Assembly (NCBI GenBank): GCA_041661625.1
Contig: JBAZUB010000003.1
Span: forward strand, 69,004 to 133,003
Direction: 5' to 3'
Length of the DNA stretch: 64,000 nucleotides
Source of the DNA: Patescibacteria group bacterium
GTDB taxonomy: Bacteria > Patescibacteriota > Patescibacteriia > JAHIZJ01
Part shown: positions 2,144-35,645 of the stretch, one piece after another
How the letters are laid out: each line of letters starts with the position of its first letter
Numbering within the stretch: the stretch's first letter is position 1
Notes under the pieces: model-generated
The model's database searches: none
The model's input: only the letters and a program-made list of their open reading frames with translations
Told to the model about the DNA's origin: nothing
Program-made: the position numbers and the translations under genes

Positions 2144-2151
2144 CGTTCATC

Positions 2152-4294: not shown

Positions 4295-5898
4295 AAGATT
4301 GTCTCGGCCGACCCCCGATTCTCCCGAAAGATATCACGCGACACTAGCAGCTCCATCGGGATCATTTCAAGGCCCTTCCAGCCAACCTGTTGTCCAATCG
4401 CAAACAGGAATCGGTCGGTAGGAATCTCCACCTTCTCACCGTTTACGGTGCTGCTGTTGTTCCCGACTACATAATACGCGTAGCTCCCCGGGGCCATGAG
4501 TGATCGCGCTGAGCGCATGGCATCGCTCATGGCGAGGAAGTATCGAGCCAGCAACGAGGGCAGGTTACGTCTACGAAAGCCGACATCCGGACCGTGGTTG
4601 TGCGACGCAATTCGCTCGATCAGTGAGATGGTTTCGCGAGGCAGTTCCTTCTTTCGGGTCTCGAACTGGCTCCATCCCTGGAGTCGTTCCTTGTCAGTGA
4701 TCTCTCGCGTGCCTACCATCAAGCTCTCAACATCCCCATGGCGTTGTCGCGAGAGGAGGCCAAGGACGACAAGGCTAAGCCTATCCGTGTCAATGTAAGG
4801 CAAGGCTGTCGCGTATGGAGGCGACGTCACCAGCAAATCGACCTTCCCCACATACTCGGGGAAAAGCTCATCAAGTTGCACCGCGTTGCCCTGCACGACT
4901 TTGAGGGTTCGCTTTCGGGACCGTGGAAGTACACAGAGGTACGGATAGATCCGGTCGGTCTGCTCCTCCACCTGGGTCCGAAACTTCTCCAGTGCTGCTC
5001 CCTGAAGATACGGTCTGACGTCCTTACGAACGCGGAGGTCCACCTCCTTTTGCCAGGATACTGAGCGCACGATCTCGCTCAGGCAGACTCGTAGGAAATC
5101 TCGGTAGAGAGCGGAATCGACTCTTTCTATGCTTCGTAAAATAGCCGCGATGTCCTTGAGGGCGGGTTCTGCAAACCACCGGCGCAGGTACGCAAGATCG
5201 TGCCCTTGCCAGAAGTGGTCGGGTTCGGAGTCCCGGAACTTCAGTTTGCGAAGGTATGCGTCGATGGTCTCGGCGAACACCTCGGGGCGTTCGCGGACAA
5301 TGCCAGCTTTCACCTTGGCAATAAGGACCGAGAGCGGGTTCAGGTCCGCTGCCAAAGCGGCGCGGCCGGCTGCTACTGTCTCGCATGGTGTTGTGCCGCT
5401 GCCGCACATCGGATCGAGGACTAGGCCGTCATCCGGCACCCCGGATATGTTCATCAGACTGCGAACGAGTTGGGGGAAGAACTTCCCCCGATATTCATGC
5501 AGGTCGTGAGGCCCGTAGCGAAGCCTTCGTGCCCGGTGAAGTTCGGTCTTCTCCGTGGTGCTCTCAGATCCGTTCTGAGTGAACTCAAGTGCGTTCTGCA
5601 CCGTAGGTTCAAGAACGGTTGTGCCGACCCGTTGCCAGTAGGTCAGGCGTTCCCGGAAGTACTGAACAGGTCGTCCTGAACGAACAAGGTGAAGGCCATA
5701 CTTCTCGGCAACCGGGCCGTCTCCCTGGAGAAGGGCTTGCAGTTCGCGAGTGGCCAGCTCGCGCTCGAATGGTTGGAGATAGGGTTTCATCTCAAACTTC
5801 AGTGAGTCCTTGTCGTTGGCGAGCAGCAACGGAGGGAAAATCGAAAATCTCCGCTGAATCATGTTCGCGATATCTATTGGCATCATGCGTTTTGGCAT
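4279..5898 (-). CDS. SAM-dependent DNA amino-methyltransferase (N6A/N4C type), second copy
   Basis: LHEYRGKFFPQLVRSL then motif I LDPMCGSGTT, motif IV LLVTSPPY. 539 aa. Overlaps both neighbouring genes by 16 nt. Confidence 0.7.
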   Translation of the reverse strand: MPKRMMPIDIANMIQRRFSIFPPLLLANDKDSLKFEMKPYLQPFERELATRELQALLQGDGPVAEKYGLHLVRSGRPVQYFRERLTYWQRVGTTVLEPTVQNALEFTQNGSESTTEKTELHRARRLRYGPHDLHEYRGKFFPQLVRSLMNISGVPDDGLVLDPMCGSGTTPCETVAAGRAALAADLNPLSVLIAKVKAGIVRERPEVFAETIDAYLRKLKFRDSEPDHFWQGHDLAYLRRWFAEPALKDIAAILRSIERVDSALYRDFLRVCLSEIVRSVSWQKEVDLRVRKDVRPYLQGAALEKFRTQVEEQTDRIYPYLCVLPRSRKRTLKVVQGNAVQLDELFPEYVGKVDLLVTSPPYATALPYIDTDRLSLVVLGLLSRQRHGDVESLMVGTREITDKERLQGWSQFETRKKELPRETISLIERIASHNHGPDVGFRRRNLPSLLARYFLAMSDAMRSARSLMAPGSYAYYVVGNNSSTVNGEKVEIPTDRFLFAIGQQVGWKGLEMIPMELLVSRDIFRENRGSAETILCFKA

Positions 5899-6911
5899 TG
5901 TGACACGTGATATGAAGCGTTGATCGCTTCGATCGGTGTCTTGTCGGATCCAAATGGCAGAGGGATGTCCCGCATTTGAAAAGCGGGAATATCCATCGGC
6001 AGCGTCCTCAAGTGTGATCGATATGCGGCCAGCCTGTCCGAACCAGCGGCGCGTATGGCGTCGTCCGTCTCTCTCAACAGGAGCGTCTCTACCTGGGCCG
6101 AAACCAGTGGCGAATGGATCGGTTTATCGCGAGCCGTTCTCTTAGCCGTGCCCATATAGGCGTCGATCTTGCCAGAAATGGCGAAGTCGCACCATCCGAT
6201 GGGAAGTGCGTCCGCGCAAGCAGCGATGATAGTGCCAATCCCCGGAGGGAAGAGCTCGGCATGCTCCAGTACCAGTAACGCTCGCAGTCGGAAATACTCC
6301 ATACTGATATATCCCAAACGAGGGCACTTTGCCGGGGCGACGATGTCAGTGGCAAGGTCTTCAGCGAGAGTTGGTGTCAGTTGGCCTGCCGAGCGAATGA
6401 CCTCGACGGCCAGCGCCATGGACAGGGTGAGTTCCGATTTCATTCGATGCCGTAGCATCGTCGCGCTGACGTCCTTGTCGTAAATCAGCCCGTCAGTTTG
6501 CCGCTTGTTCAGCAGAAGCGCGGAGTACCTAACGTGATCGATGCCGTTGGGGCGTAGCTGGCGCTCGATCCACCATCGGGTATGAATGGCATGGATGGTT
6601 GGTTGGAGGTACTGTCCTCCGAAGTGGTATAACTGATTGCCGTATTGTTCTGAGTAGGCAACTGGGACATCGTTGACCGTGAGAAGTTCCTCCATGATGC
6701 CGAGCCAGTCGTGCCGAATGTGTCCATCCAATACCAGGTCGATGAGCGACGCCTGCAGGCAGACGGAAGCGGCTGCCAAACCGTGGTCAGCCTGCTGGAT
6801 TGCATTCTCGCGCCATTCTTTCAGGTAAGCGGCATGGATTGGCAGAATGAAGCCCGGAGCTAGCGTGATCTGGGGTGTAATAATGTGTTCAGGCATTGTA
6901 AAAAGCCGCAC
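5883..6911 (-). CDS. Hypothetical protein, 342 aa, third gene of the 4-gene overlapping operon
   Basis: Long ORF, translationally coupled by overlap on both sides. No motif recognised. Confidence 0.5.
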   Translation of the reverse strand: MRLFTMPEHIITPQITLAPGFILPIHAAYLKEWRENAIQQADHGLAAASVCLQASLIDLVLDGHIRHDWLGIMEELLTVNDVPVAYSEQYGNQLYHFGGQYLQPTIHAIHTRWWIERQLRPNGIDHVRYSALLLNKRQTDGLIYDKDVSATMLRHRMKSELTLSMALAVEVIRSAGQLTPTLAEDLATDIVAPAKCPRLGYISMEYFRLRALLVLEHAELFPPGIGTIIAACADALPIGWCDFAISGKIDAYMGTAKRTARDKPIHSPLVSAQVETLLLRETDDAIRAAGSDRLAAYRSHLRTLPMDIPAFQMRDIPLPFGSDKTPIEAINASYHVSQCQNA

Positions 6912-8475
6912 AAGGATCAGGAGCTATCCGGTGAAATACTGCATACATCAGCAAAGGGAAATACCATCTACAGAGAGAGGATGATGCCCAGAAGTCGATA
7001 CGGGCGACGCCGGCTCCGGTGGGCTCGACGTGGGAGTATCTGTCCCCGTAGTTTGCCCGAAGAAGACTCGGTTGTTCGAGGGGCATATCAGCGACGTTGA
7101 GAGCCCACTCCTTTATGGGCAACGATACCTCGATAGTACGGAGTTTGCCGTCACCGCTGTTACCTCCGCGGAGCATCGGCACGCCGTTCTTGAGCGCGGT
7201 CACCACGAGTTCGGGGAAGTACTGGGAACCGACCTTCACTTTCCATGCGTCCAGGCAGTACTGGACCGGAAAGAGGCGTTGTAGCGAGCGGAGCATCAAT
7301 TCAAGACTGGTGCCCTCCGAGGATGTGAATCCCAGAGCGAGCGGACCAGGGCTCGAGTTGAACATCGTTATGAGCTTTTCTTTGGGCGTCGATCCTTCGG
7401 CTAGGTATAGGCCGGCTACATACGACCATAGTGGGTCGATACGAAGCGAGCGGTGAAGTACGACCTCGCTTGATTGTCGCCATTGGCCGACGAGATTATT
7501 GCCTACAGGCGCGAGGCGCAACGGTCGAGTGCAGTTGATTTGACCATAGGGATTATCGGCAAAGAACTGTGCGACGTCAATATGTTCGCCGACCGTGGAA
7601 GGGGTGGCGGCCCATTGGACCAGGCCCGAGCTCGAGGTCTGAGAGTCGCTCAGAATCGAGTCCTCGACCTCATGCATCATCTTCAGGAACAATTCCCCAA
7701 TACCGTTAAGACCGCCGACACCGAGTTCATCCGATCTGCTGGAGCCTCCTGGAAGTCTTGCGCCCTTCTTGAATGGTCGACGGACTGACGCGGCGACTTT
7801 GATATCCGGGCCGATGGGAATGCCGACGGCAGCTATTTGGGCCGTCTTTTCACGCGCGAGAATAATCTCCATCGCGGTCTTGTGCTGGTAGTAGAAAGAA
7901 AGGTGCTCTTCAGGGGTGCCAGGAACGTCCGGGCGCACTTCGGCCAAGTACCGCGAGTCTGGGTCCGTAAGTCTGGCGCGCACTGTGGCGAGGGGGACGG
8001 GAGCAGGGACGTCCGAATTGGCTGTTTCCCGATAATACAATCGGAGCCTATCGGCACCGACGCCGTCCATGAAGTAGGCACTATCCTCGCCAAGGTAGAA
8101 TGTGAAGCGGACCTGGCTCGGAAAGAATTTGCGGAACTGGTCGACCGCAAAACGGATGAGATTCTGTTCCTTTTGGGAAAAGGAAATCGTAGGGACGATC
8201 CGAGTGGTGTCGTGCCTGTCCTCAGACCCTTTCGCTCCGTCACCGCTATAGAGCCCCAAGAAGGCGACCAGCTCTTCATCGAGCTCGACTGTGCGCGGAA
8301 TCGTGACCGTATCGCCGAAGCCATCCTCGCGGCGCAGGACGAGGTTCTCACCCTCAATCGCGAAGGAATACCGCTGGCGGTACTTCCGGTCCTTCGCATC
8401 CGTGATGACGCTCCCGGTGACGAGCCCCTGTACTGCGATCAAGTATTGTTCTGTTCGTAGGTGTCCTAGAATCAC
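6889..8475 (-). CDS. Hypothetical protein, 528 aa, with two LAGLIDADG-like motifs (possible nuclease)
   Basis: FLGLYSGDG at about aa 72-80 resembles an intein/I-DmoI motif 1. VAGLYLAEGS at about aa 353-362 resembles I-DmoI motif 2 GLYVAEG. First gene of the operon, with a 320-bp intergenic region upstream. Confidence 0.45.
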   Translation of the reverse strand: MILGHLRTEQYLIAVQGLVTGSVITDAKDRKYRQRYSFAIEGENLVLRREDGFGDTVTIPRTVELDEELVAFLGLYSGDGAKGSEDRHDTTRIVPTISFSQKEQNLIRFAVDQFRKFFPSQVRFTFYLGEDSAYFMDGVGADRLRLYYRETANSDVPAPVPLATVRARLTDPDSRYLAEVRPDVPGTPEEHLSFYYQHKTAMEIILAREKTAQIAAVGIPIGPDIKVAASVRRPFKKGARLPGGSSRSDELGVGGLNGIGELFLKMMHEVEDSILSDSQTSSSGLVQWAATPSTVGEHIDVAQFFADNPYGQINCTRPLRLAPVGNNLVGQWRQSSEVVLHRSLRIDPLWSYVAGLYLAEGSTPKEKLITMFNSSPGPLALGFTSSEGTSLELMLRSLQRLFPVQYCLDAWKVKVGSQYFPELVVTALKNGVPMLRGGNSGDGKLRTIEVSLPIKEWALNVADMPLEQPSLLRANYGDRYSHVEPTGAGVARIDFWASSSLCRWYFPLLMYAVFHRIAPDPCAAFYNA

Positions 8476-8797
8476 AGCATCTGTTCCTGTTTAGTATTAA
8501 TAGCCGGCCTGATCCGACCATTCCTTGGCGAAGACGCCGGATATGCTACTGGTCCAAGGCGACCGCCTGTCACCCCTCATGTCGAATCTTCCTGAAGCCC
8601 CTCCAAGCCCATCCCAAGGACTGGGTCGGAATGGCGCGCCGCAGGACATCGGAAGTGGCGCAAGTTACAAAAAATCATCAGCTTACGCCTCTTTATCATA
8701 CCGATTTGTTCGAGCCTAGTCAATCTGCCACAACTCCGTAAGTTAGCGCAACTCAATAGAAAGAGGCTGGTCCTTCGGGGAGCAGCCTCATGGTGGA

Positions 8798-9526
8798 TCA
8801 GAGCGCGAGTGCGCTCCGGAAGGTGCTGGAGAGTCGGAGCCCGGAGTCCATTTGGACCCGCGGACTCCGGGACTTGCTGACTTCGGTGAAGGCGTTGTAG
8901 AGCGACCAGGCGGTCCGGGGAGCAAACTCCTCGTGGGCGGGCGTCTCCCACGCCTCGATCACCTTCGGGAGGTTCGAGGCTGGCAGGACGTCCTGCCGGA
9001 CGGCCTCGACCATGAGGTGGTCAGCCGCCTCGACGGAAAGCTCAAGCGCCTTCATCGCCACGATTTCGGCGTGGATCCGGCTCTGCATTGAGGAGACCTT
9101 CGAGAGCATGCGGTAGATCAGGTCCGGAAGATCCCGAAAGATGTTGATGGTGTGCCTGCGGGTCGCGGCGGCCTCTCCAGAGAAGGCGAGGTTGTCGCAG
9201 ACGAAGACGTGGTGGCCGGCGGTGAGATTTGCAGAGAGGGACCGGTCGTAGCTGTTTCGGAGACCGATCGCGAGGGCGTAGTCGGCGTGCTTCCCGCCGT
9301 TCCGGCAGGTCAGTACCCCGAACATCTGGGCGCCGTCGCGGGCAAGCGCGTAGCAGGCATCGGTGATCGTGAGGCCGAAGCGCGGAACATGGAGTTCGAC
9401 TTCCTCGACGAACCGGCCGTAGGGCACCGGGACGTAGGAGTCGGTTTCGGAAGGAACAGGGACGGAAGCCAGGTCGGCTTTGGTCGCCTCCCAACCTCCG
9501 CGATGGAGAATGAGCTGACTGGACAT
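8798..9526 (-). CDS. Conserved hypothetical protein typical of integrative/conjugative elements (DUF932-like?)
   Basis: 242-aa ORF containing HHVFVCDNLAFSG. The family assignment is from memory only. Confidence 0.35.
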   Translation of the reverse strand: MSSQLILHRGGWEATKADLASVPVPSETDSYVPVPYGRFVEEVELHVPRFGLTITDACYALARDGAQMFGVLTCRNGGKHADYALAIGLRNSYDRSLSANLTAGHHVFVCDNLAFSGEAAATRRHTINIFRDLPDLIYRMLSKVSSMQSRIHAEIVAMKALELSVEAADHLMVEAVRQDVLPASNLPKVIEAWETPAHEEFAPRTAWSLYNAFTEVSKSRSPRVQMDSGLRLSSTFRSALAL

Positions 9527-9551
9527 GACGGGGACCTTCCTTTCCAGAGTT

Positions 9552-10235
9552 TCAGATCAGACCGCGTTCACGAAACGACAGGTAGGAGCCGCCGGCGCCG
9601 ATGATCACGTGGTCGATGACCTCGATGCCGAGCATCTCGCCGGTGCGGACCAGCCGATGGGTCATCTCGACGTCGTCTTCCGACGGTTCGGGGTCGCCTG
9701 ACGGGTGGTTATGAGCCAGGAGCATGGAGGCGGCCGCCGCCTGGATGGCGGGTCGGAACACCTCCCGAGGATGGACGATCGATGCATTGAGGCTTCCCAC
9801 ACTCACCGTCTCGAACTTCAGGAGGCGGTGCCGGGTGGTGAGCAGAAGCGTGACGAACATCTCGCGCTTCAAGTCTCCCAGGACGGGACCGACGACCTGC
9901 ACGGCGTCCTGCGCCGTGCGGATGATGAGGTTCTGTTCGGTACGAGGAACGGCTGCGCGGCGCGAGAGCTCGAACGCAGCGAGCACCTGGGTCGCCCGGC
10001 GCCGTCCGATCCCCGGGATCGCGACCAGGTCGGCTGTCCCGGCGTCGGCGATGACATCGAGCGAGCCGAATCGGGAGAGCAACGCCGCGGCCGCGTTTCC
10101 GGAGCAGAGCACGGCGGAAAGCAGGCGCGTCACGGGCCAAGACCGGCAGTCTTCCCGACAGTGGATCAACGGGTCCTCCAGCATCGGGATTGCGGGATCG
10201 ATCATGTGAGCCTCCTTCTTCCGGCAAACGCTCAT
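9552..10235 (-). CDS. radC: RadC-like JAB/MPN domain protein
   Basis: N-terminal HhH (LLSRFGSLDVIADAGTADLVAIPGIGRRRA) and JAMM motif LLAHNHPSGDPEPSEDD. Confidence 0.85.
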   Translation of the reverse strand: MSVCRKKEAHMIDPAIPMLEDPLIHCREDCRSWPVTRLLSAVLCSGNAAAALLSRFGSLDVIADAGTADLVAIPGIGRRRATQVLAAFELSRRAAVPRTEQNLIIRTAQDAVQVVGPVLGDLKREMFVTLLLTTRHRLLKFETVSVGSLNASIVHPREVFRPAIQAAAASMLLAHNHPSGDPEPSEDDVEMTHRLVRTGEMLGIEVIDHVIIGAGGSYLSFRERGLI

Positions 10236-10321
10236 GCGTTTCCGGCGGGTTGAGAGATCGCTGGGTAGAGAAAGAGGGGGTCTTCAAGCGAAGACCCCGG
10301 GACGAAGTGGAAGGCGGGCGG

Positions 10322-11080
10322 TTACCCGCGCCACTGTTGGCAATGAGCGAAGTACTCACACTCGGAGCAGCGATACGAAGGATTCGGGAAGCAGCAACCG
10401 GACTGGATAGCCAGAGCCACGCTTTCGATCAGCCGGGCGGTCCAGGCAAGGTCCTCAATTGTGCGGGTGGCAGGCAGGTGCACCAAGCGCGGGACCTTGG
10501 TCTTCAGAAGCGCGTCAATGCGGAGAGGTGGAACCGTTCCGGTTGCGAGGAAACGAACGAGCGCGTAGGTGGAAAGCTGGAGGTGTCGTTCGAGCGAACC
10601 CGTGTCGAAGGTCCGGGCGGCAGTCTTGAGTTCCACGAGCGTGCCGTCCGCCTCGACCAGATCAATCACCCCGCGCAGTCGGATGTCGAACACTTCACCG
10701 GTTTCGGGATCCACGAGGTCGATCTCGAAGCGGTCCTCGGTCAGGAGCGGCATTGTGCCGGATGAATCCGCGACATACAGAGCAACGAGTTCGTGACCCT
10801 TCTCCGCGAGGATCTCCTTGGATTCCTTCTCGGCGAACACCACGGGCTCGAGGTTCTGTGCGAACCAGTCGGCATCGAAGATCTTCGCGACCGCCTCCGG
10901 TTCCGGCGTGCGTCCGGCCAGCCGTTCGCGGTGGAACCACTCTACGGCAGCATGGACGGAAGAGCCGAACACCAGCGCGGCAGGCCGCCAGGGCGGCGGG
11001 ATCTTGTCGATGTACTGGAAACGGTGCTTGAGTGGACAGGTGAGGTAGGTCTGAACCCGGCTAACGCTGAGGGGCTCCAT
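10322..11080 (-). CDS. Cas4/RecB-like PD-(D/E)XK exonuclease with Fe-S Cys cluster
   Basis: N-terminal YLTCPLKHRFQY, core IDLVEADGTLVELK, C-terminal CCFPNPSYRCSECEYFAHC. Overlaps the upstream recT-like gene by 20 nt. Confidence 0.7.
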   Translation of the reverse strand: MEPLSVSRVQTYLTCPLKHRFQYIDKIPPPWRPAALVFGSSVHAAVEWFHRERLAGRTPEPEAVAKIFDADWFAQNLEPVVFAEKESKEILAEKGHELVALYVADSSGTMPLLTEDRFEIDLVDPETGEVFDIRLRGVIDLVEADGTLVELKTAARTFDTGSLERHLQLSTYALVRFLATGTVPPLRIDALLKTKVPRLVHLPATRTIEDLAWTARLIESVALAIQSGCCFPNPSYRCSECEYFAHCQQWRG

Positions 11081-11744
11081 CGGGGGCCTCCTGCAGGAGC
11101 TGGTCGATCGCCTCCGTTGCCCTGGCTTTGCTGACCTGGGTAAGCGTCTCGACCCCGAAGAACTCCTTCAGGTACTCGTGGGCGGCGTCATTCTGAAGCC
11201 CTTGGCCGGCGAGAATCCGGAAGAGATACCGACGCTGAGCTTCGGTCATGAGCGCTCCGTTGCCATTGCCGTTGCCGCCGGGCTGCGGTGTTCGGGGAGA
11301 GGTCCGACCGTTGCCGCGGGCGGCGCGAACCGGCGCGGGTGCAGCACCCGATCCGAGGTCCGATTCACCTGGCGGGAAGCCATCGCCGTCCAGCTCCTCG
11401 AAGGAGACGATGCCGATATTTACGGCATCACGGAGGGCGCGAGCCTTCGCCCGGGTCTCGGCCATGCGGATCAGGTGTGGGACGATGAACGAGTTGACGT
11501 TCTCGGGATTGGCGTCGCCGATCCCGTCGAACTTCCCCTTCTTCGTCTCGACGAGCGCCTTGGCGATCGCCGTCCGGCCGTTCTCGTCCGAGGGGATCTG
11601 AACGAGCCGGGTAGCGATGCGCTGCAAGCCTTCGTCGTGGGCCTTGCTGAGGAGGCCCTGGTAGGTGACCACCTCCTTCGTGCCGACGACGCGGCCGGTC
11701 CGGTCCTTGATCTCGATCGTGCGGATGAGGCCGTTCTGGGTCAT
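11061..11744 (-). CDS. RecT-family single-strand annealing protein (SSAP)
   Basis: Start chosen at the ATG at 11744, preceded by AGGAGG. The RMAETRAKARALRDA helix resembles RecT EMAKKTAIRRL. Paired with the exonuclease immediately downstream. Confidence 0.5.
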   Translation of the reverse strand: MTQNGLIRTIEIKDRTGRVVGTKEVVTYQGLLSKAHDEGLQRIATRLVQIPSDENGRTAIAKALVETKKGKFDGIGDANPENVNSFIVPHLIRMAETRAKARALRDAVNIGIVSFEELDGDGFPPGESDLGSGAAPAPVRAARGNGRTSPRTPQPGGNGNGNGALMTEAQRRYLFRILAGQGLQNDAAHEYLKEFFGVETLTQVSKARATEAIDQLLQEAPDGAPQR

Positions 11745-11950
11745 GGGGACACCTCCTGTTCCGTGGGGGGATTTGGAAAGGGCGGGCAAGACGGAGAGCG
11801 AGTCTCCACCCTTCACGGTACGGGAGGTGGGCCTTGGGACGTAGGGAGGGCGATGCGTCGTTGAGCGCACATCCTGTGGAAAACCCACCGTCGTAAGGCC
11901 TTCACAGAACCGAATGATTATGGTAAGGTTGCTTACCTTGATATTGATCT

Positions 11951-12172
11951 ATGCAGACGATGACAAACGTACCCCAAAACACGTACGCCAACCCGACCGA
12001 CGGCAATACGTACTACCTTGCTTCGCTTGAGGACGGGAACAGCAAGGTTCTTTGGGCGTGTCCGACAAACCGCGACGGCTCGGCTGATTTCGTTTCAGCC
12101 ATCCCGGAAACCGACTTCGCCGAACCGCTCACACCCGATGATCGGGAGCGGATCGTGCGCGCTCTCACATAG
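11951..12172 (+). CDS. Small hypothetical protein (73 aa), opposite strand within a 460-bp intergenic region
   Basis: ORF in an otherwise noncoding gap. No motifs recognised. Confidence 0.3.
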   Translation: MQTMTNVPQNTYANPTDGNTYYLASLEDGNSKVLWACPTNRDGSADFVSAIPETDFAEPLTPDDRERIVRALT

Positions 12173-12207
12173 GAAAGCGCAAGGGAATCGTGAAGACGTG
12201 ATGCGCT

Positions 12208-12732
12208 TCACGAGTTTTGTCGTCTGGATAATTGGACGGCTACCGCAACTGCGAGTGCGTCAAACATATGAAGCCAGTACCTATCCTTGGGCTTGTAGCC
12301 GAGGACGGGATGCGGTGGCTCCTTCGGGAGCTTGATCCGAAGGTCCTCAAAGCCCATGCGGACGATGGCGTGTGCGACGTCGAACTTTTTCGCGTGGCGA
12401 TCACCGACCACGACTCGCCGCACGTCGGGCGGCGCTATCTCCAACACCCGGATGCCGAGTTCGCGAGATCGTGCCTGAAGTTCCTGGACGATCACCGAAA
12501 CGAGAGCGGCGCGTTTCGTAGGGACAAGCAGGGGCTTTTCGATTGCGACGACCGAGGGAGCGTGCTCGGCGACATACGACAGAATCACCCGACGAGCCTG
12601 GCCGATCACGTCGTGCGGCCGTTCTCCGTTGTGGAGGGTGTGGACGCCGAAGCCAAGAAGGGTCGAGCCCGTGATGACCACCGCTCCCATGTATTTCGTT
12701 CCAGGATCGATGCCGAGGATTTTTTCTTCCAT
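12208..12732 (-). CDS. RuvC-like Holliday-junction resolvase (phage-type), copy 1
   Basis: LGIDPGTKYMGAVV, VVAIEKP, C-terminal MFDALAVAVAV (RuvC D/E/D/H layout). Confidence 0.7.
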   Translation of the reverse strand: MEEKILGIDPGTKYMGAVVITGSTLLGFGVHTLHNGERPHDVIGQARRVILSYVAEHAPSVVAIEKPLLVPTKRAALVSVIVQELQARSRELGIRVLEIAPPDVRRVVVGDRHAKKFDVAHAIVRMGFEDLRIKLPKEPPHPVLGYKPKDRYWLHMFDALAVAVAVQLSRRQNS

Positions 12733-12904
12733 TGTTAATTGGCCGTTTAGATGGTGAGTACGAACGGGTTCCCTCCCGAGAGACCGCGACGGTGTGGACC
12801 CGGCTTGCGCGGGTGACCACGATGTCCGCGGCGGCGGTCCGCAAGACGGAAACCGCCTGGCTTTCCAGCCGAAGAATCGGCTCCGGGAGGGCTGTATGAG
12901 TGGT

Positions 12905-13405
12905 TCAGGCGGCCGTGGCCTGATGGTGAAGAGCGAGGGCGACGGCGTCGAACATGTTCTGGAAGTACGCTTCCTTCCAGCGGCGGTCTTGCGTGAGATA
13001 GACCCGCAGGGCGGGCAGGCGTCCGGCGACAGCCTCGGCCGTCTGGCGTTTGTTCGCCCAGCCGTGGCCGACGAGGCCCTTGCGGACGGTCTGGGGCGCG
13101 TATGTCGCGACCGTCAGCCCTTTCAGGGCAGCCATGCGGCGAACCCGACGGGCCAGACGGTCCAGCCGATCCAAGGAGTTCACGCGGTTCGGGTGGGTGG
13201 CTTCAAGGACGACGATCGAGGGTCTGAACTGACCGATCCAGTCGCCGATGGCCTTCACGGCGGCGGGGAGGCGCTGCTTCGATGGCAGCAACCGGAGCGG
13301 GAGGACTCCCGACTCGATCAGGGATCCTCCTCGGAGAATGGCGTACCCGAGGTCCCGGAGGCCGGGATCAAGGGCGAGGATCGTCTTCGCTGTGGCTTTG
13401 GGCAT
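12905..13405 (-). CDS. RuvC-like Holliday-junction resolvase, copy 2 (paralog)
   Basis: ILALDPGLRDLGYAIL, IVVLEAT, MFDAVALALHH. Start reassigned to the ATG at 13405; the track start at 13558 adds an implausible extension. Confidence 0.6.
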   Translation of the reverse strand: MPKATAKTILALDPGLRDLGYAILRGGSLIESGVLPLRLLPSKQRLPAAVKAIGDWIGQFRPSIVVLEATHPNRVNSLDRLDRLARRVRRMAALKGLTVATYAPQTVRKGLVGHGWANKRQTAEAVAGRLPALRVYLTQDRRWKEAYFQNMFDAVALALHHQATAA

Positions 13406-13922
13406 GGCGTTTGAGTAGATAAAGAAATAAAGCTGTGCGTGAGCGGCGGATCTCGGCCGCCGGAACGGCGAGGGTGCCGGCGAGCGCGCGTTTGATGATC
13501 GCGTCGTCGTGGAGCTCAAGCGCCGATTCGAGCGCTCCACGGTCCCCGTTCTCCCCAAGTGCTCGCTCCAGCTTCCCGATGGTGAAGAACCGTTTGATTT
13601 CCGGCGGCGATTCAGCCTGCGCCGGCAGCTGGGGAAGGTGCCGGACAGTCACGCGAACGGTTTGTCCGGAACGCTGGAGCCTCACATAGCGACGCGTTCG
13701 GAGATGGCCAAGCCAGCTTCGGACGGTTCCGTCGGGGAGCCCCATGGCGGAGGCGATCTCCGCCGTGTCCAGCTCCAGCGTGTTCTGGCCGGCGGGCAGT
13801 CGGACCAGAAGTCCGAGGTAGAGCCAGACGGCCGACCGCATCCGGCGGATGTGGAGCGCCTGCGGGTGCTCCAAGAGTCCTCGGTCGAGTCGGATTATAA
13901 TGGGCATCGGGTTTCGGGTCAT
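13368..13922 (-). CDS. Winged-helix DNA-binding protein (replication/regulatory), paralog A
   Basis: HTH IASAMGLPDGTVRSWLGHLRTRRYV. C-terminal motif IRRSRTALFLYLLKRH is shared with the next gene. Confidence 0.5.
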   Translation of the reverse strand: MTRNPMPIIIRLDRGLLEHPQALHIRRMRSAVWLYLGLLVRLPAGQNTLELDTAEIASAMGLPDGTVRSWLGHLRTRRYVRLQRSGQTVRVTVRHLPQLPAQAESPPEIKRFFTIGKLERALGENGDRGALESALELHDDAIIKRALAGTLAVPAAEIRRSRTALFLYLLKRHAQSHSEDDPRP

Positions 13923-14536
13923 AGGTGGCTGTCGATCTTCGTGATGAGGTAGCGGAAGAGAGCGAGCTTGGATTTCCTGATCTTCTCGAGCGGCGTGTTG
14001 CGTACCCGGTCGAGAGCGCGGGTAACATGATCGGGCGAGTGACGAGCGAGGATTGCTGGCAGCTCCGTTTCGACCTCGGGTCCGACAACCTCCCGGGCCA
14101 GCCGCGCCAGCGCCCCTTCCCCCGCACCCCCATCCCCGATAGCTATAGCCTGCTTGCCTGATAATTGCTTAGAACAGCTATTGCTATAGCTATCTTCAAT
14201 ATGTGATCCGGGAAAAGCTTCGGAATTGCTCTGATTCTCGCGCTCCGACGCCACTTCGCCAGACCACGAAACGAGGTGCGCGACAAGGTACGGCAATGGC
14301 GACTGCACGCGCACGAGTCCGGCATCAACGAGGCGAGATAGCCACCGATCGATCCGGTCTTCCTCCACACTTAGCTCCCGGGAAAGGCGGGCGCGGGTAC
14401 GAATCACCACTCCGTGTGATCCCGCGTGACGGATGAGAGCGAGGTAGAGAAACGCGCTGTTGCCGATCCGGTCAACGGGACGAGAAAAGTCGAGCACGGC
14501 GTCGAGAGCGCGGGTGGGAATACGTCGCTCGGTCAT
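13919..14536 (-). CDS. Winged-helix DNA-binding protein, paralog B
   Basis: LSRELSVEEDRIDRWLSRLVDAGLVRV. C-terminal IRKSKLALFRYLITK. Overlaps its neighbour by 4 nt (ATGA). Confidence 0.5.
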   Translation of the reverse strand: MTERRIPTRALDAVLDFSRPVDRIGNSAFLYLALIRHAGSHGVVIRTRARLSRELSVEEDRIDRWLSRLVDAGLVRVQSPLPYLVAHLVSWSGEVASERENQSNSEAFPGSHIEDSYSNSCSKQLSGKQAIAIGDGGAGEGALARLAREVVGPEVETELPAILARHSPDHVTRALDRVRNTPLEKIRKSKLALFRYLITKIDSHL

Positions 14537-14808
14537 CCTTCTTCGTGCTTAGATTTATCCTCACGCTTAGGGAAGTAAAGGGCAGCGTAAAGCGACTCCG
14601 CCAACGTCCCGAGGGATCGGGCCAGGCGGAACACGTTCGGCAGGCTCGGCAGGGAGCAGCCCCGCTCCCAGGCCGACACGATTGGCCGGCTCCTACCGAT
14701 AAGCTTTCCCAACATGGTCTGGGTGAGGCCAGCCCGAAGCCGGTATTCGCGGATGCGGTTCGGAAACCGGGCTGTGACTCTTGATCGGCGAAGGGTGAAT
14801 TGAAACAT
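14533..14808 (-). CDS. XRE-family HTH transcriptional regulator (repressor-like)
   Basis: IREYRLRAGLTQTMLGKLIGRSRPIVSAWERG. Start moved to the ATG at 14808 (MFQFTL). Confidence 0.7.
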   Translation of the reverse strand: MFQFTLRRSRVTARFPNRIREYRLRAGLTQTMLGKLIGRSRPIVSAWERGCSLPSLPNVFRLARSLGTLAESLYAALYFPKREDKSKHEEG

Positions 14809-14874
14809 GTACCAAGAATACAGACACGAACAGAAACCGAACAGAGGGGGTGAGGTGCATAACTGTTCGCCTCC

Positions 14875-14899
14875 TGTGGACAGCGGGCAGATATCCACA
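14875..14899. promoter_or_regulatory. 6-bp inverted repeat TGTGGA-N13-TCCACA in the divergent xre/small-ORF region; candidate operator
   Basis: Read directly from the sequence. Confidence 0.3.
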
Positions 14900-14965
14900 A
14901 AACAAGCCGCTTTCTGGACCTCTCGCACTCTACGACCGTTCCCGGAAGTGTGAGACGATTCGGGC

Positions 14966-15166
14966 ATGAATACCCCAAACGAGCCGTCCGACCATGATGC
15001 CGGGACCATACTCCCCCAGAAAGCAATCGACGACCTCAAGGCGATCTACCGCCGGAAATGCGGGTCGGATCTCTCCGACCATGACGCCAGGGAGATGAGC
15101 AACCGCCTCCTTCGTGTTTTCGCCGTGCTGACGCGCGAACCGACGGACCGGCGAGACCGAGTTTGA
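14966..15166 (+). CDS. Small hypothetical protein (66 aa) divergent from xre
   Basis: ORF only. Cro/antirepressor-like position. Confidence 0.35.
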   Translation: MNTPNEPSDHDAGTILPQKAIDDLKAIYRRKCGSDLSDHDAREMSNRLLRVFAVLTREPTDRRDRV

Positions 15167-15245
15167 ACCGCGTCCACCCGCCTATCTTGACGGGATCCGG
15201 GAGTTAATTCTACACTTCAACACTAAACATCTGACACCTAAGTCA

Positions 15246-16760
15246 TTGCCTTCCTATATCCTCTATGCGCGCAAGTCCTCCGAATCGGAGGATCGTCAAG
15301 TTCTCTCCATCGATTCGCAAGTCCGCGAATTGGAGGCCTTCGCGCAATCCCAGAACTTCACGGTTGCCTCGGTCCTGGCTGAGTCCCGCTCGGCCAAGGC
15401 CCCCGGCCGGCCGATCTTCGCGAAGATGCTCCGATCCGTCAGCCAGGGAAAGGCCGACGGCATCCTCTGCTGGAAGCTCGACCGCCTCGCCAGAAACCCG
15501 GTCGACGGGGCCGCCCTCATCTGGGCGGTCGACGAAGGCAAGCTCCGGGAGATTGTCACCCGGGACCGGGCCTTCCAGAACACCGGGAATGACAAGTTCT
15601 GGATGCAGCTCGAGTTCGGCATGGCCAAGAAGTACGTGGACGATCTCTCCGACAATGTCAAACGCGGCAACCGAGCCAAACTGGAGCAGGGCTGGCTCCC
15701 GGGGCTGCCCCCAATCGGGTATCTGAACGACGCGGTGACGCGGAAGATCGTTCGCGATCCGGACCGGTTCGACATTCTGCGGAAGATCTGGGACGCCGTG
15801 CTGGCCGGTGAGTCTCCCCTCGAAGTGCTTTCGACCGCCACCGACGAGTGGGGGTTACGCACGCGAAAACACCGGCGCACGGGGGGTAAGCCGCTCGGCC
15901 GGAGCAACTTCTATGTCATGCTCTCCAACCCATTCTACTATGGGCTGCTTGTTCGCAACGGTGAGTCCTATCCTGGATCGCACCCTCCCATGATCTCGCA
16001 GGACGAGTTCGACCGCGTCCAGGAGCTACTCGGCCGTCCGAATCGGGCACCGCAACGGCGGCACGAATTCGCCTTCACGGGACTGATCCGCTGCGAGGAG
16101 TGCGGCGCTTCGATCACCGCCGCGGAGACGGTGAATCGGTACGGCTACCACTACGCCTACTACCACTGCACGAAACGGAAGGCCGGCACTTCCTGCAGAC
16201 AGATGCCGATCCGCGAGGAAAAGCTGGAAACACAGATCCGCGAGGTATTGAGCCAGGTGGCCATTGACGACGACTATCGCGACTGGGCTTTGGAGAACCT
16301 TCGGATTGTCCACGAACGGGAAAGCAAGAGCCGGCAAACGGTGGACCGTTCCCTGGACGAGACTCACCGGGACGTTCAGAAGCAGATCGACGCGCTCCTC
16401 CAGGTCCGCCTCCGTGGATTGGTCACCGACGAGGAATATGCCGCCAAGAAGCACTCTCTTGTTTCCGAGAGCCTTCGATTGAAGGAACGCCTCGTCGACA
16501 CCGATGGCCGAGCCACCCGTGGGTTGAAACTTTTCGAGCAAGCGATATTGTTCGCACACCTAGCCCCGAAACGCTTCGCGGAGGGAACAACCGCGGAGAA
16601 GCGCGAGATTCTCATGGCCCTCGGTTCCAACCTCTTGCTCAAGGACAGAACTCTGCGAATCCAACTGCAAAAACCCTTCCACCTGATCGGGGAAGGGCGG
16701 CACAGTATTTCCTGGTACCGGAGGAGGGACTTGAACCCTCAATCCCTTACGGGAACGTGA
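15246..16760 (+). CDS. Large serine recombinase (integrase)
   Basis: Resolvase-domain catalytic region YARKSSESEDRQVLSIDSQ, recombinase domain, zinc ribbon CEECGASI...YHCTKRK, C-terminal coiled-coil region. TTG start. The last about 16 codons are encoded by the tRNA-Leu sequence. Confidence 0.85.
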   Translation: MPSYILYARKSSESEDRQVLSIDSQVRELEAFAQSQNFTVASVLAESRSAKAPGRPIFAKMLRSVSQGKADGILCWKLDRLARNPVDGAALIWAVDEGKLREIVTRDRAFQNTGNDKFWMQLEFGMAKKYVDDLSDNVKRGNRAKLEQGWLPGLPPIGYLNDAVTRKIVRDPDRFDILRKIWDAVLAGESPLEVLSTATDEWGLRTRKHRRTGGKPLGRSNFYVMLSNPFYYGLLVRNGESYPGSHPPMISQDEFDRVQELLGRPNRAPQRRHEFAFTGLIRCEECGASITAAETVNRYGYHYAYYHCTKRKAGTSCRQMPIREEKLETQIREVLSQVAIDDDYRDWALENLRIVHERESKSRQTVDRSLDETHRDVQKQIDALLQVRLRGLVTDEEYAAKKHSLVSESLRLKERLVDTDGRATRGLKLFEQAILFAHLAPKRFAEGTTAEKREILMALGSNLLLKDRTLRIQLQKPFHLIGEGRHSISWYRRRDLNPQSLTGT

Positions 16761-16799
16761 TTTTGAGTCACGCGCGTATGCCAATTCCGCCACTCCGGC
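16713..16799 (-). tRNA. tRNA-Leu (anticodon CAA), 87 nt including encoded CCA
   Basis: The reverse complement gives GCCGGAGTGGCGGAATTGGCATACGCGCGTGACTCAAAATCACG...GGGTTCAAGTCCCTCCTCCGGTACCA. It has a long variable arm and a T-loop TTCAAGT. G1-U72 is a wobble pair at the acceptor end facing the island. Confidence 0.85.
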
Positions 16800-16868
16800 A
16801 TGATTTCTTAAACTTACATTGTCAACGATTTTGCCCAGCACCACTCACTTTGTTCGGATGCTGGGCGC

Positions 16869-16881
16869 GAGTCACGCGCGT
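16869..16881. repeat. 13-nt copy (GAGTCACGCGCGT) of the tRNA-Leu D/anticodon-arm segment, about 100 bp beyond the tRNA 5' end
   Basis: Identical to 16765-16777. The following about 14 nt are also similar to the tRNA. Confidence 0.5.
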
Positions 16882-16945
16882 CTTCCAACTTGCCCCGTAA
16901 CGAACGAGCCTGGCGAGTTCTGTTGCGGGGTTCCCCCCGGGGCTC

Positions 16946-16992
16946 GTCCCGCTCAGCGGGACACGCCCGTCCCCGCCTGCCAAAGCACAGCG
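16946..16992. repeat. GC-rich element: hairpin GTCCCGC-TCA-GCGGGAC plus the 21-mer CCCGCCTGCCAAAGCACAGCG, which is also found next to tRNA-Val
   Basis: The 21-mer at 16972-16992 is identical to 35862-35882. Confidence 0.6.
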
Positions 16993-17127
16993 GCGGGCAG
17001 GTCGATGGCCGCGAGTGAAGCAGTTCACTCGCTATCCCGCACGGCGGGATGCCATCTCGACCCACTCCGGCCTCAATTGGGCAGGATGTATTATGCTCTA
17101 AAATGTGCGATAACGTGTTTGCTGGTT

Positions 17128-17157
17128 CGTAGGCGAACAAGCGCTTGTTCGCCTACG
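17128..17157. promoter_or_regulatory. 30-bp perfect palindrome CGTAGGCGAACAAGC|GCTTGTTCGCCTACG upstream of parA. An AT-rich tract with TTAATTA repeats follows at 17220-17340.
   Basis: Read directly. Possible operator, terminator or origin-proximal element. Confidence 0.4.
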
Positions 17158-17396
17158 GTTGTGTTTAAACGAACGACCGTGTTTCCACAAATGCAGGATG
17201 CTCTGCTATTGGCGTGTAATTCGCATTAATAATATGTAAAATAAGCCGATTTGTCAATTATTCCAGTTAATTAACCATTTAATTAAAAGGTTAATTGGCG
17301 GGTGTGGTCTATCGCTCGATAAACATTGAATAATCATCGTTTTCCTTGTATAATAATAGCAGTTGCTAAGACAATGACGCAGCTTGTGTTATACCC

Positions 17397-19040: not shown

Positions 19041-21386
19041 ATGGACGAACACACTCAGAATCTGGGGGGAACCGCGAGCGAAACAAACAAACCAAAGTCA
19101 TCATCGGGTTGGTTAAAATGTATTTCATTGTGGTCGGTATGGGCGGCTATTTTTCTGATACCGCTGTTCTTTTTACCGTCCACGGCTAATCCATTCGATC
19201 AGAACAAGGCGCTGCTTTTCGGCATTCTGACAGTCATTGCCGCCTTGGCTTGGCTCGGTCGAATAGTGTTTTACCGTACGGGCAGTTTCGTACGCACGCC
19301 GCTCGATCTGCCGATTATGATTTTCGGCCTGTTATATGCCGTTACCACGTTTTTTTCCAAGAACTGGTACGCCAGCTTAGTCGGCCAGACCGGCTATGTG
19401 CACAATTCGACCATTGTGGTGCTGATGTTAATCATTTGGTATTTCCTGCTGACGAATTTAATCAATTCGAAGGAGCGGTTGCGGCGCGCTATTGAAATAC
19501 TGCTATCATCTGGTTTCGTCGTGTCGGTGTTGGCTCTGATATATATGCTGGGCGGGCGAATACTGCATTGGGACTTCATGCAAAGCAATAGTTTCAATAC
19601 CGTTTTCAATTCCAATATTATCCTGGGACTGTTTTTGATATCGCTAGTGCCATTCCAGCTAATCTGGCTGGTGACGCGTCGGCAGAATATCTGGCGCTGG
19701 TTCCTAGTGGCCTCATTATTGGCTGAAACGGCCGCATTTGTCCTGATTGACGCGAATGAGGTTTGGTATGCTCTGATTGGTGTATTGGTGGTGGTGATGG
19801 CCGCGATGATAGTACGCACGGGAAAATTCGACCCGCGCTGGGTGATATTACCCACGATCATGTTGATCATCTCGCTGTTGCTCGTGTTCATCGATGCCAG
19901 CTCACTGACCAAGCACAGCCTGCCTTCCGATATTATTCTCGATCAGGGCTCCTCGGCTAAGATAGCTGGTTCGGTATTATCAAAGGCGCCACTCTATGGT
20001 ACCGGGCCGGGACTGTTTTCATACGCTTTCAACGCCTATCGTCCCGTCAGTTTCAATAATACCAGTTATTGGAGTCTCGGGTTTATCAAAGGCGGCAGCG
20101 AGTTCTGGCAGATGCTGGTGACAACCGGCGTAATTGCTACCGGCGTGTATATTCTAGTAGCGCTGATATTTCTAATATCAATAGGTCGGAAACTATGGCG
20201 CGAACGTTCCGCGAACGAAGACTGGTTGAATCAAGCGGCGCCGTATATTGCCTGGCTGGTGCTACTCGCCTTTGGATTCTACTACCCGTACAGTTTTGTG
20301 TTGGCGTTTCTGTTTTGGACGTATTTGGCACTGGGTATGCGGCACAATGGAATGGCCAAAGATTCAGTGGCACAAACGGCAGCCAGCAACACCACCAGCT
20401 TGGTCAGCTCGCTGGCCTTCTCGGTAGTAGCTGTTCTATCGGTGGCCTTCGTGTACTACGGCATTAGGCTCTGGATGGGCGACTATCATTATGCCCGCGG
20501 TAATGCCGATCTCAATGCCGGCCAATACCAATCAGCCCAAAAGGAGTATAGCAAAGCAATCGACAACATCAGCCGCCGGCCGGAATATTACTTCGGCTTG
20601 GCTCAGTCGTATATCGAAGAAGTTACCGCCTCAAACACAACCGATCAGGCGGAGATTGCTAAATTACGGGATAAAGTCACCGCTGCCATCGCGGCCGGTA
20701 ATAGCGGCATTGACGTCGATCAGAATAATGTCAGTTCGTATCAGGCTATGGTGGGCGTGTACCAGCAGCTCAATGGATTCTCCCAACCGAGTCAAAAGAC
20801 CGTTGTCGAGCTGTATGACAAATTGATGGCCAAGAATCCAAATAACCCGCTGGTTTGGTTGGGTTCGGGCGACGCCTTAGTGGCGTATGGTCAGGTATTG
20901 GAACAAAATATGCCTAAAGACGACGAGACCCTGAAATCTCAATATCAGACCGAAGCGCAAAAAGCCTATACGACGGCGGCTGATCGCTATCAACGAGCCG
21001 GTGAATTGAAGCCCGATTACCAGACCGCCTTGCTCAGAAAAGCCGCCTTACCGGAGCTGACCGGCGATGACGATCTGACCTTGACCCAGGTTGGCGAATT
21101 CTTGAAGAAATATCCAAACAATATTGACGCCCAGTACGAAATGTCCCAGCTTTATCTCAAAAAAGGCGATAAAGCCAAAGCCAAAGAATATTTAGTAGCG
21201 GTATTGAATCTGAATCCACAACACGCCAATGCCGGCTATCAGCTGGGCAGCATCGTCATGGAAGAGGGCGACAAAGAAACCGCCAAGGCGCTGTTTACGC
21301 GGGTATTCATCAACAATCAAACCAATCAACAAGTACGCGACAAGCTGACGGCGCTGGGTGTGAACCCCGACGATTTGCTCAAGTAA
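19041..21386 (+). CDS. Polytopic membrane protein (O-antigen-ligase/Wzy-like) with C-terminal TPR repeats
   Basis: More than 10 TM helices, then Y/A/L-rich TPR-like repeats (YYFGLAQSY, AYGQVLEQ, LYLKKGDKAKAKEYL). Confidence 0.5.
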   Translation: MDEHTQNLGGTASETNKPKSSSGWLKCISLWSVWAAIFLIPLFFLPSTANPFDQNKALLFGILTVIAALAWLGRIVFYRTGSFVRTPLDLPIMIFGLLYAVTTFFSKNWYASLVGQTGYVHNSTIVVLMLIIWYFLLTNLINSKERLRRAIEILLSSGFVVSVLALIYMLGGRILHWDFMQSNSFNTVFNSNIILGLFLISLVPFQLIWLVTRRQNIWRWFLVASLLAETAAFVLIDANEVWYALIGVLVVVMAAMIVRTGKFDPRWVILPTIMLIISLLLVFIDASSLTKHSLPSDIILDQGSSAKIAGSVLSKAPLYGTGPGLFSYAFNAYRPVSFNNTSYWSLGFIKGGSEFWQMLVTTGVIATGVYILVALIFLISIGRKLWRERSANEDWLNQAAPYIAWLVLLAFGFYYPYSFVLAFLFWTYLALGMRHNGMAKDSVAQTAASNTTSLVSSLAFSVVAVLSVAFVYYGIRLWMGDYHYARGNADLNAGQYQSAQKEYSKAIDNISRRPEYYFGLAQSYIEEVTASNTTDQAEIAKLRDKVTAAIAAGNSGIDVDQNNVSSYQAMVGVYQQLNGFSQPSQKTVVELYDKLMAKNPNNPLVWLGSGDALVAYGQVLEQNMPKDDETLKSQYQTEAQKAYTTAADRYQRAGELKPDYQTALLRKAALPELTGDDDLTLTQVGEFLKKYPNNIDAQYEMSQLYLKKGDKAKAKEYLVAVLNLNPQHANAGYQLGSIVMEEGDKETAKALFTRVFINNQTNQQVRDKLTALGVNPDDLLK

Positions 21387-24817: not shown

Positions 24818-25193
24818 AAAACAGGGTGAATCACCCTGACGCCACTACTAGTTTAGCAGATTCTACAAAACTGACAAGAAAAATAGAATCAAGATTAGCT
24901 AAACAACATTACGCAAAACGTTGGATTGAAATATTGGCAAACCTTTTCGCGAAAACCTGCCCGCTCGTGTCTCGCAGTGGCAGGCGGGGGTGAAAAGGTG
25001 CTAATATTGGCTTAATAATAGATGGTACCGTTGACATAGTTGAGTGTTTACACTAACATCACATATTCTGGCTCTTTAATAATTCTGGCAGTCTTAGCCA
25101 ATAGCGTTTGATAACATCAAGGGTTACTGGCTATGACTGCCACAAAAGTGGTGGCCCTCTGGCAATGTGTTCAAAACCCAAAGGAGGCCAGCC

Positions 25194-35614: not shown

Positions 35615-35645
35615 ACCATTGAAATATATATCAATGTTTTTTCGA

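Follow-up and report, generated by a model that had tools for sequence, protein, structure and literature searches.

A short GC-rich palindrome in the flanks of two tRNA genes of a Patescibacteria genome, with copies in unrelated bacteria and phages

Introduction

Patescibacteria genomes are tiny and streamlined, and are thought to contain little repeated or selfish DNA. We analyzed a 64-kb stretch of one such genome (here, the window) in which the flanks of a tRNA-Leu gene and a tRNA-Val gene share an identical 21-mer. What is this shared sequence, and does its position beside two tRNA genes say something about its nature? A sequence-only reading had assigned it to a family of small GC-rich elements that associate with tRNA genes, and had named MITEs, sRNAs and recombination sites as candidates.

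Results and Discussion

A GC-rich palindrome with three copies in the window

The 21-mer, CCCGCCTGCCAAAGCACAGCG, occurs exactly at 16972-16992 and 35852-35872 and had no match in 100 shuffles; the identity of the two copies is as first described, but the second had been placed 10 nt off, at 35862-35882. It consists of the 5' arm, the loop and the first 3'-arm base of an imperfect GC-rich palindrome of approximately 30 nt with the formula CCCGCCTGCC-loop-GGCGGGCAGG, with 10 pairs, one C.A mismatch and one T.G wobble between its arms. The window contains the following copies.

16972-17001, plus strand: copy 1, CCCGCCTGCC-AAAGCACAGC-GGCGGGCAGG, with an additional C at 16971
35852-35910, plus strand: copy 2, a composite with the 5' arm and loop start of copy 1 and the 3' arm GGCGGGCGGG
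24956-24988, minus strand: copy 3, CCCGCCTGCC-ACTGCGAGACACGA-GCGGGCAGG, followed by TTTT

All three copies are non-coding and have common arms and different loops, and copy 2 has a hairpin, GTCTGCC-TGTC-GGCAGAC, nested inside it. Copy 3 lies in the intergenic region between the divergent dprA and a 216-aa gene, where there is no tRNA; the inverted 11-nt core reported from the dprA leader, at 24978-24988 on the minus strand, turns out to be part of this full hairpin. Across the copies in the window and those from other DNA (see below), the bases 5' of the arms vary (cgtC, acaA/C, cacC, gtcaC, ttctC, ggatC). Block-shuffled and scrambled-arm controls gave nothing above noise, compared with three copies per 64 kb here, although the density is low (3 in approximately 47 kb of host DNA). 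With 2 mismatches allowed in the arms, the search returned only noise, and the heptamer GGGCAGG is not enriched in the window (11 occurrences versus 8.2 expected).

Comparison of the tRNA-Leu and tRNA-Val loci revealed no extended homology outside the palindrome. Because the palindrome is all that they have in common, the loci do not represent a single island end in duplicate.

Copies in unrelated bacteria and in phage contigs

In genome and metagenome searches, the exact 21-mer was found in four contigs outside the window, two from Bacteroidota MAGs and two from metagenomes, so it is not confined to a pair of duplicated ends. An identical 31-mer is present in two Bacteroidota MAG contigs and one metagenome contig (L003, L004 and L006); L005, purine-rich low-complexity DNA with a variant 3' arm, was set aside as uninformative. 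The external 31-mer copies lie in unrelated surroundings and show no flank homology. In L004, two inverted copies flank a fragment of a GxxExxY gene.

The exact 21-mer had no match in IMG/VR. When we searched IMG/VR for the same arms with loops of 6 to 36 nt, we detected 44 copies in 37 stretches, with at most three per contig, versus 4 stretches for a control in which both arms were reversed (composition and pairing kept). One of the palindrome-rich phage contigs is IMGVR_UViG_3300024048_000009. The loops recur in a few forms, including RAAGC-NNN-GC as in the window. Phage capsid and portal genes lie beside these copies, some of which are located within homologous portal genes or just upstream of the ribosome-binding sites of capsid genes; copies in such positions could have a selected RNA or protein-coding role rather than reflect mobility. 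No transposase was among the 25 most frequent Pfam families (115 ORFs beside IMG/VR copies), and no Y1 or other transposase was seen in the part of the window ORFs that was scanned. In the literature, the arm sequences led only to unrelated papers on eukaryotes, and a search for palindromic repeats in Patescibacteria gave nothing relevant.

Within SPP1-portal-like ORFs, the palindrome takes a 27-nt form whose loop is AAGCCTT or similar; it lies at 1062-1088 of L044, where it is read in frame as ..RLPSLGGQVG.., and in homologous ORFs of L032, L037, L041, L043 and L048.

These distributions undo the proposed tie to tRNA genes: none of the four external 21-mer loci has a tRNA nearby, copy 3 has none, and the IMG/VR copies lie beside phage genes. 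Because the same palindrome is present in unrelated bacteria and phages, we regard it as a tiny mobile hairpin and not as a tRNA-specific signal. On balance, and with modest confidence, we favor the reading that it is a miniature non-autonomous palindromic insertion, similar to REP elements or GC clusters, that was acquired horizontally and collects in permissive DNA flanking tRNA genes. It would then be one member of a widespread family in which the arms are conserved and the loops vary, and would have inserted three times into non-coding DNA here, twice into the debris of old tRNA genes.

The tRNA-Leu flank: island, host DNA and relics

A GC-rich island of approximately 23.7 kb lies at the 3' end of tRNA-Leu. 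Positions 1-16712 of the window are its right part, and it runs approximately 6.95 kb further to the left (L016 10712-19817). It encodes a large serine recombinase of 504 aa (gene 15246-16760). Homologs of this protein end in ...W-L-x-LVDGxRTFFxEHPxLIQWPxFC, whereas the window protein ends in ...SISW followed by 14 residues of antisense tRNA-Leu. The C-terminus that it lacks, WYTLVDGIRTFFDEHPDLIQWPRFC, is encoded on a Logan contig of the source genome, at the left junction of the island, and the recombinase rejoined with it aligns to a homolog without gaps. Its location there places attP inside the 3' end of the recombinase gene, integration trading the last ~50 codons for tRNA antisense, and places the crossover core at TGGTAC (16713-16718), the 3' end of tRNA-Leu. 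With the crossover at TGGTAC, 16800-17100 is host DNA, and its earlier description as the host side of the island junction stands.

Relic B and the leader motif (see below) had suggested that 16713-17040, including the live tRNA-Leu, is part of the island; we rejected this reading because the native recombinase C-terminus lies at the island's left junction. A tRNA-like stretch at that junction (L016 ~19750-19817), considered as a displaced 3' half of tRNA-Leu, is the displaced end of the recombinase gene. The island cargo comprises a second serine recombinase, a VirD4-like coupling protein, DUF932, RadC, PDDEXK, two methyltransferases, SMODS+AGS_C (CBASS-like) and an NHL protein with a T9SS Por_Secre_tail; the palindrome is absent from the island. 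The recombinase protein is recorded only in Logan and ENA assemblies, and therefore the island may be absent from, or otherwise annotated in, the NCBI assembly; identical ParA (MFA6198564.1) and SigP are also found in a 206-kb NCBI MAG contig. The host proteins ParA, ParB and SigP mark the source as a Patescibacteria MAG.

The host side contains the following features, in addition to copy 1.

16713-16799, minus strand: intact tRNA-Leu(CAA), with its 3' end TGGTAC at 16713-16718
16869-16902, minus strand: relic A, a degenerate tRNA-Leu 5' half (approximately positions 7-35), inside a block conserved in L019
16876-16946, minus strand: conserved leader block, 90% identical to L019 2056-2125; two copies in L019
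16946-16962, no strand assigned: 17-nt hairpin GTCCCGC-TCA-GCGGGAC; its L019 counterpart is another small palindrome, GGCGACATCGCC
17011-17032, no strand assigned: hairpin GCGAGTGAA-GCAG-TTCACTCGC; its L019 ortholog is ATAAACTGAA-GCAG-TTCAGTTTAT
17034-17050, no strand assigned: 17-nt hairpin ATCCCGC-ACG-GCGGGAT, not in L019, at the place expected for the anticodon arm of relic B
17040-17071, minus strand: relic B, degenerate 5' part of tRNA-Leu (positions 1 to ~31), with GCCGGAGTGG exact
17074-17087, no strand assigned: CAATTGGGCAGGAT, ancestral leader motif of tRNA-Leu; a 14-nt inverted repeat of L007 and L019 has it as one arm
17128-17157, no strand assigned: 30-nt palindrome CGTAGGCGAACAAGCGCTTGTTCGCCTACG, conserved in L019
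17229-17257, minus strand: promoter-like site TTGACA-17-TATTAT (11/12 matches), with TTGACA kept upstream of tRNA-Leu in all relatives

The repeat of a tRNA-Leu segment at 16869-16881 that had been reported is real. Relic A has a 13-nt exact core there, GAGTCACGCGCGT, identical to tRNA-Leu 16765-16777; its alignment to tRNA positions 16-35 has a local score of 30, compared to a maximum of 22 in 200 shuffles, and the homology stops at the first anticodon base. Relic B is followed by the leader motif that adjoins the live tRNA-Leu in L007 and L019.

The distance from tRNA-Leu to parA is 135-205 bp in L007, L008 and L010 (ParA 78-83% identical) versus 597 bp in the window. In the closest relative, L019 (ParA 89% identical), this distance is 567 bp, and most of the window's extra DNA is common to both: the 16876-16946 block, the 17011-17032 hairpin, relic B with its motif (17040-17087) and the 17128-17157 palindrome. 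L019 differs in one further respect, a tandem duplication of 199 bp that spans the leader, the block and the 5' end of the tRNA. On its 3.7-kb contig, an ordinary gene adjoins tRNA-Leu and there is no island. Since relics A and B are common to L019, they are old 5'-partial duplications in host-lineage DNA and not scars of the present island. Of the two origins offered at the outset, a relic of a tRNA copy or of an att site, the former holds, and the latter does not hold for the neighboring island. The duplications could be tandem in origin, or could result from integration of small elements carrying the 5' part of a tRNA.

Because TTGACA is conserved across relatives, the site at 17229-17257 is likely to be the pre-tRNA-Leu promoter, in which case the tRNA-Leu hairpins would be transcribed.

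Two further observations concern this leader. In L007 (8-123) and L019 (1715-1827), a perfect 14-nt inverted repeat, ATCCTGCCCAATTG ... CAATTGGGCAGGAT, brackets tRNA-Leu and would lengthen the acceptor stem of the precursor; the window retains only the upstream arm, beside relic B. Two independent Logan contigs of the source genome start or end within the 30-nt palindrome at 17128-17157, which therefore breaks assemblies.

The tRNA-Val flank: a split relic

The features around tRNA-Val, in addition to copy 2, are as follows.

35492-35510, plus strand: 5' part of a relic tRNA-Val (tRNA-Val'), GGGTGATTAACTCAGTTGG; with 8 upstream bases, a 24/28 match to 35637-35664
35511-35605, plus strand: GC-rich insert of approximately 95 nt in the D-loop of tRNA-Val', with hairpins at 35511-35527 and 35569-35593
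35511-35527, within the D-loop insert: hairpin GCCCCGC-N3-GCGGGGC
35600-35620, plus strand: direct repeat 1, CCCAGGATAGAGCGCACCATT, a 17/21 match to 35827-35847
35646-35722, plus strand: intact tRNA-Val(CAC)
35827-35949, plus strand: direct repeat 2 and the 3' part of tRNA-Val' (D-stem to CCA), homologous to the 5'-truncated second tRNA-Val of L014
35922-35938, no strand assigned: 17-nt hairpin GCCCCGC-TAA-GCGGGGC, in the exact place of the 17-nt T-arm of the L014 relic, GGAGGTTCGATTCCTCC

The direct repeats at 35600-35620 and 35827-35847 bracket the live tRNA-Val segment, which parts the 5' and 3' parts of the relic, and the 3' end of the D-loop insert runs on into the relic's D-arm. In L014, the 5'-truncated second tRNA-Val directly follows the live one. 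When the halves of tRNA-Val' are joined, the insertions taken out and a canonical T-arm restored, ARAGORN calls a tRNA-Val(CAC); with the GC hairpin kept in place, it makes no tRNA call.

In the host part of the window, no non-coding stretch other than the two tRNA flanks reaches 77.5% GC. Both are long, fast-evolving leader or trailer DNA that holds relic tRNA pieces.

Several details of this locus deserve mention in their own right. Approximately 48 nt at 35567-35614 are near-identical to ~87-135 of L015, although SigP is 69% identical; this suggests constraint or recent transfer. The stretch contains the hairpin CTGCTCC-N11-GGAGCAG and then CGCTGCCCAGGATAGAGCGC, and the surrounding AT-rich DNA does not align to L015. 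An ORF of the glyoxalase superfamily (weak Pfam match) lies at 35984-36418, between the relic tRNA-Val and sigP, and is not present at that position in L013, L014 or L015. A second GC-rich element, TTAGGGCGCATGCCCCTTTCCCCAC-hairpin-ATGGGGNCCCC, is located upstream of sigP in L014 (3817-3951) and L015 (196-250), and L014 also has a 23-nt direct repeat, TCATTGCGCCCTGCAGGCTGCGC.

Partial copies of both tRNAs (relics A and B of tRNA-Leu; the split tRNA-Val relic with its 17/21 direct repeat) raise the question of whether the GC-rich stretches are scars of earlier integrative elements that targeted tRNA genes, with the 21-mer left over from related element ends. The resemblance to tRNA att-site scars is reinforced by tRNA-Leu being an attachment site at present, for the 23.7-kb island, by a GC content that is high as in the island, and by the glyoxalase-like gene, which follows the relic tRNA-Val and is missing in relatives. 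We nevertheless consider this quite unlikely as an account of the palindrome. The palindrome alone is common to both loci, with no element-end homology, and it lies outside any att repeat. The island lacks it and recombines at TGGTAC without duplicating the tRNA; the partial tRNA copies do not match this island, whose junctions are set by the split recombinase gene. In addition, L019 shares the relics and the conserved block, which are thus old host-lineage DNA, and relics A and B lie upstream of the gene and represent its 5' part, whereas an att scar is usually a 3' end. Such scars may explain the tRNA relics, but account neither for the palindrome nor for its occurrence in Bacteroidota and phages.

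If the palindrome is instead a small mobile insertion, two of its three window copies would have landed in the tRNA-Leu leader and the tRNA-Val trailer, which are made of decaying partial tRNA copies. Because these flanks are free of coding constraint, the tRNA association would be only apparent.

Filled and empty sites in relatives

Two sites can be compared with relatives that lack the palindrome. Site 1, in tRNA orientation, reads ..GGCCATCGAC, then the palindrome (CTGCCCGCC..GGCAGGCGGGGAC), then GGGCG.. in the window, versus ..GGCCGGAAC joined directly to GGGCG.. in L019; it sits in a conserved leader that is otherwise alignable to L019, which is without the 31-32-nt palindrome. Site 2, in the relic tRNA-Val, reads gagcgcacgattcaca, then 59 nt, then ttcgtgaggtc in the window, versus gagcgcacgatacaca joined directly to tttgtgaggtc in L014. 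The 59 nt are the composite copy 2, which interrupts the relic's anticodon loop. Neither filled site has a target-site duplication, and approximately 60 kb from seven relatives contain no copy of the palindrome. In principle, the relative could instead have lost the palindrome by deletion at either site; the intact tRNA-like anticodon loop of L014 argues against this.

Together with the identical copies in unrelated genomes, these two comparisons bear out the proposal of a family of small GC-rich hairpin elements, and the sequences support the view that its members behave as insertions. They do not fit the proposed MITE class (DDE-type), which has terminal inverted repeats and target-site duplications and measures 50-500 bp: we found neither feature, and the element is a single hairpin of 30-59 nt.

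The sequence-only reading had also pointed to small hairpins at both loci, and those at 16946-16962, 35511-35527 and 35922-35938 are present as described: the pattern GYCCCGC-N3-GCGGGRC has three matches in the window (16946, 35511 and 35922) versus 0.04 expected. Three 17-nt RYCCCGC-N3-GCGGGRY hairpins occupy sites that in relatives hold a 17-nt tRNA arm or a small palindrome. The hairpin at 17011-17032 likewise has the same center as its L019 ortholog, with outer stems that are fully compensated, GC-rich here and AT-rich in L019. Such replacements are what would be expected if hairpins formed in place, by template switching or quasi-palindrome correction together with GC-biased repair and without any transfer. 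This process may hold for the 17-nt hairpins only. It cannot yield the same 31-mer, with the same loop, in four genomes that are unrelated, or the tenfold excess of these arms over the control in IMG/VR, and we judge it very unlikely as the origin of the palindrome.

A possible role in RNA

Another possibility is that the hairpins are functional RNA modules of the pre-tRNA leader and trailer, selected for processing, stability or insulation, and that the palindrome recurs through a conserved RNA-binding factor. The conserved promoter-like site, running from 17257 to 17229, would place all the tRNA-Leu hairpins in the primary transcript. The hairpins at 17011-17032 (compared with L019) and 35511-35527 (compared with L015) keep their pairing by compensatory changes, and such changes between species near the palindrome hint at selection on structure. 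Folds of the hairpin regions have greater stability than those of shuffled sequences (z of -3.2 and -4.0), the 35567-35614 stretch is conserved in L015 beyond what the SigP identity would suggest, and the palindrome in phage contigs often lies just 5' of a capsid-gene ribosome-binding site.

For the palindrome itself, however, the same leader and trailer of the closest relatives lack it, and therefore it is not needed for the tRNAs; moreover, copies 1 and 2 differ in orientation relative to transcription. Rfam holds no matching family: only tRNA-Leu and tRNA-Val pass the gathering threshold, and the best match in permissive scans is the sodF sRNA, with 19 bits versus a threshold of 46. The suggested sRNA or recombination-site role found no support, and the search for an Rfam family of the hairpin elements came back empty. 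Nor is the palindrome an intrinsic terminator, because most copies are without a T-run: among the window copies, only copy 3 is followed by one (TTTT), and most IMG/VR copies have none. A terminator scan called neither copy 1 nor copy 2 in either orientation; its sole call near copy 2 was the nested hairpin at 35871-35890, on the minus strand. Overall, we regard selected RNA modules as a possible but improbable explanation. Under the insertion reading that we favor, the element is probably neutral or selfish; the hairpins probably do lie in pre-tRNA transcripts, where they may incidentally stabilize the RNAs or change their processing.

Comparison with known palindromic elements

The preferred reading, a miniature non-autonomous insertion, can be weighed against known systems. 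REP elements carry at their 5' end a conserved GTAG (or similar) tetranucleotide, the cleavage site of the RAYT protein. The palindrome resembles REP and REPIN elements in being a short (20-40 nt), imperfect, extragenic palindrome with several copies per genome, in which the arms and the mismatch are conserved and the loop is variable, and the L004 copies, inverted around a spacer, are like a REPIN. It differs in that none of the copies examined has a 5' GTAG, and in copy number (3 in 64 kb, versus tens to hundreds per genome). A RAYT or Y1 gene, usually flanked by REPs, is also a feature of REP/REPIN-RAYT genomes; none was found among the window ORFs that were scanned or in the most frequent families beside the IMG/VR copies. 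REP and REPIN elements are mobilized by RAYT (Y1) transposases (PMC3116915, PMC3337134). REPIN-RAYT systems are reported to be mostly inherited vertically within lineages (bioRxiv 10.1101/2022.05.22.493013); unlike them, the palindrome occurs with identical sequence in different phyla and is common in phage contigs.

The GC clusters and repetitive hairpin elements of mitochondria, described in yeast (PMC4478555) and sponges (PMC2800124), are likewise GC-rich palindromes of 30-60 nt that invade AT-richer non-coding DNA, with presence/absence polymorphism, nesting and no encoded enzyme. They are organellar and unrelated in sequence, and the likeness is descriptive only.

The palindromic elements of Rickettsia (named in PMC1779305) are comparable as palindromic insertions in a small-genome, host-dependent bacterium, and the 27-nt form within portal-like ORFs extends the likeness. 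At ~30 nt and with a cross-phylum distribution, the palindrome differs from these elements. The Rickettsia elements measure approximately 100-150 bp, are restricted to one genus, and are tolerated inside RNA genes and in-frame in protein genes. Integron attC sites, finally, have the R''/R' core sites RYYYAAC and GTTRRRY at the ends of the palindrome; we found no GTTRRRY in the arms CCCGCCTGCC and GGCGGGCAGG.

Because no transposase, target duplication or Rfam family was found, we infer the mobilizing mechanism. By analogy, the element would most likely be mobilized in trans via a hairpin in single-stranded DNA, as REP and REPIN elements are by Y1 (RAYT or IS200-type) transposases. A bolder version, which we consider unlikely though conceivable, is that of a horizontally mobile element of approximately 30 nt, spread by phages across phyla including the ultra-small Patescibacteria, that leaves no target duplication and inserts where a hairpin or loop already exists (the anticodon loop of a tRNA, the base of a leader hairpin). 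Its trans machinery would be one not yet linked to REP-like DNA, and the same process would also have produced the 17-nt RYCCCGC-N3-GCGGGRY hairpins found in place of tRNA arms.

A palindrome that is letter-identical in Bacteroidota contigs and abundant in phage contigs would mark recent DNA traffic into these epibionts, and would exemplify REP-like DNA that is not bound to a lineage. If it is merely a neutral insertion, it represents an ordinary case of small repeats gathering in unconstrained tRNA flanks. In either case there is a practical side: the hairpins and the neighboring 30-nt palindrome interrupt assemblies, and relic tRNA pieces can mislead the mapping of att sites and island boundaries.

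Other features of the window

Three additional features lie elsewhere in the window. At 39500-46800 there are several families of direct repeats of 24-76 nt (for example, ACATCACATAACAGCGTGTAT..CGCATACACGCAAACGTTGTACG), with irregular spacing and low GC (37-44%). Three tandem repeats of 180 nt occupy 53296-53835, 79-84% identical to the first copy and with approximately 60% GC. Finally, prfB (release factor 2), at ~62916-64000, has the classic +1 frameshift site CTTTGAC near 62978-62985.
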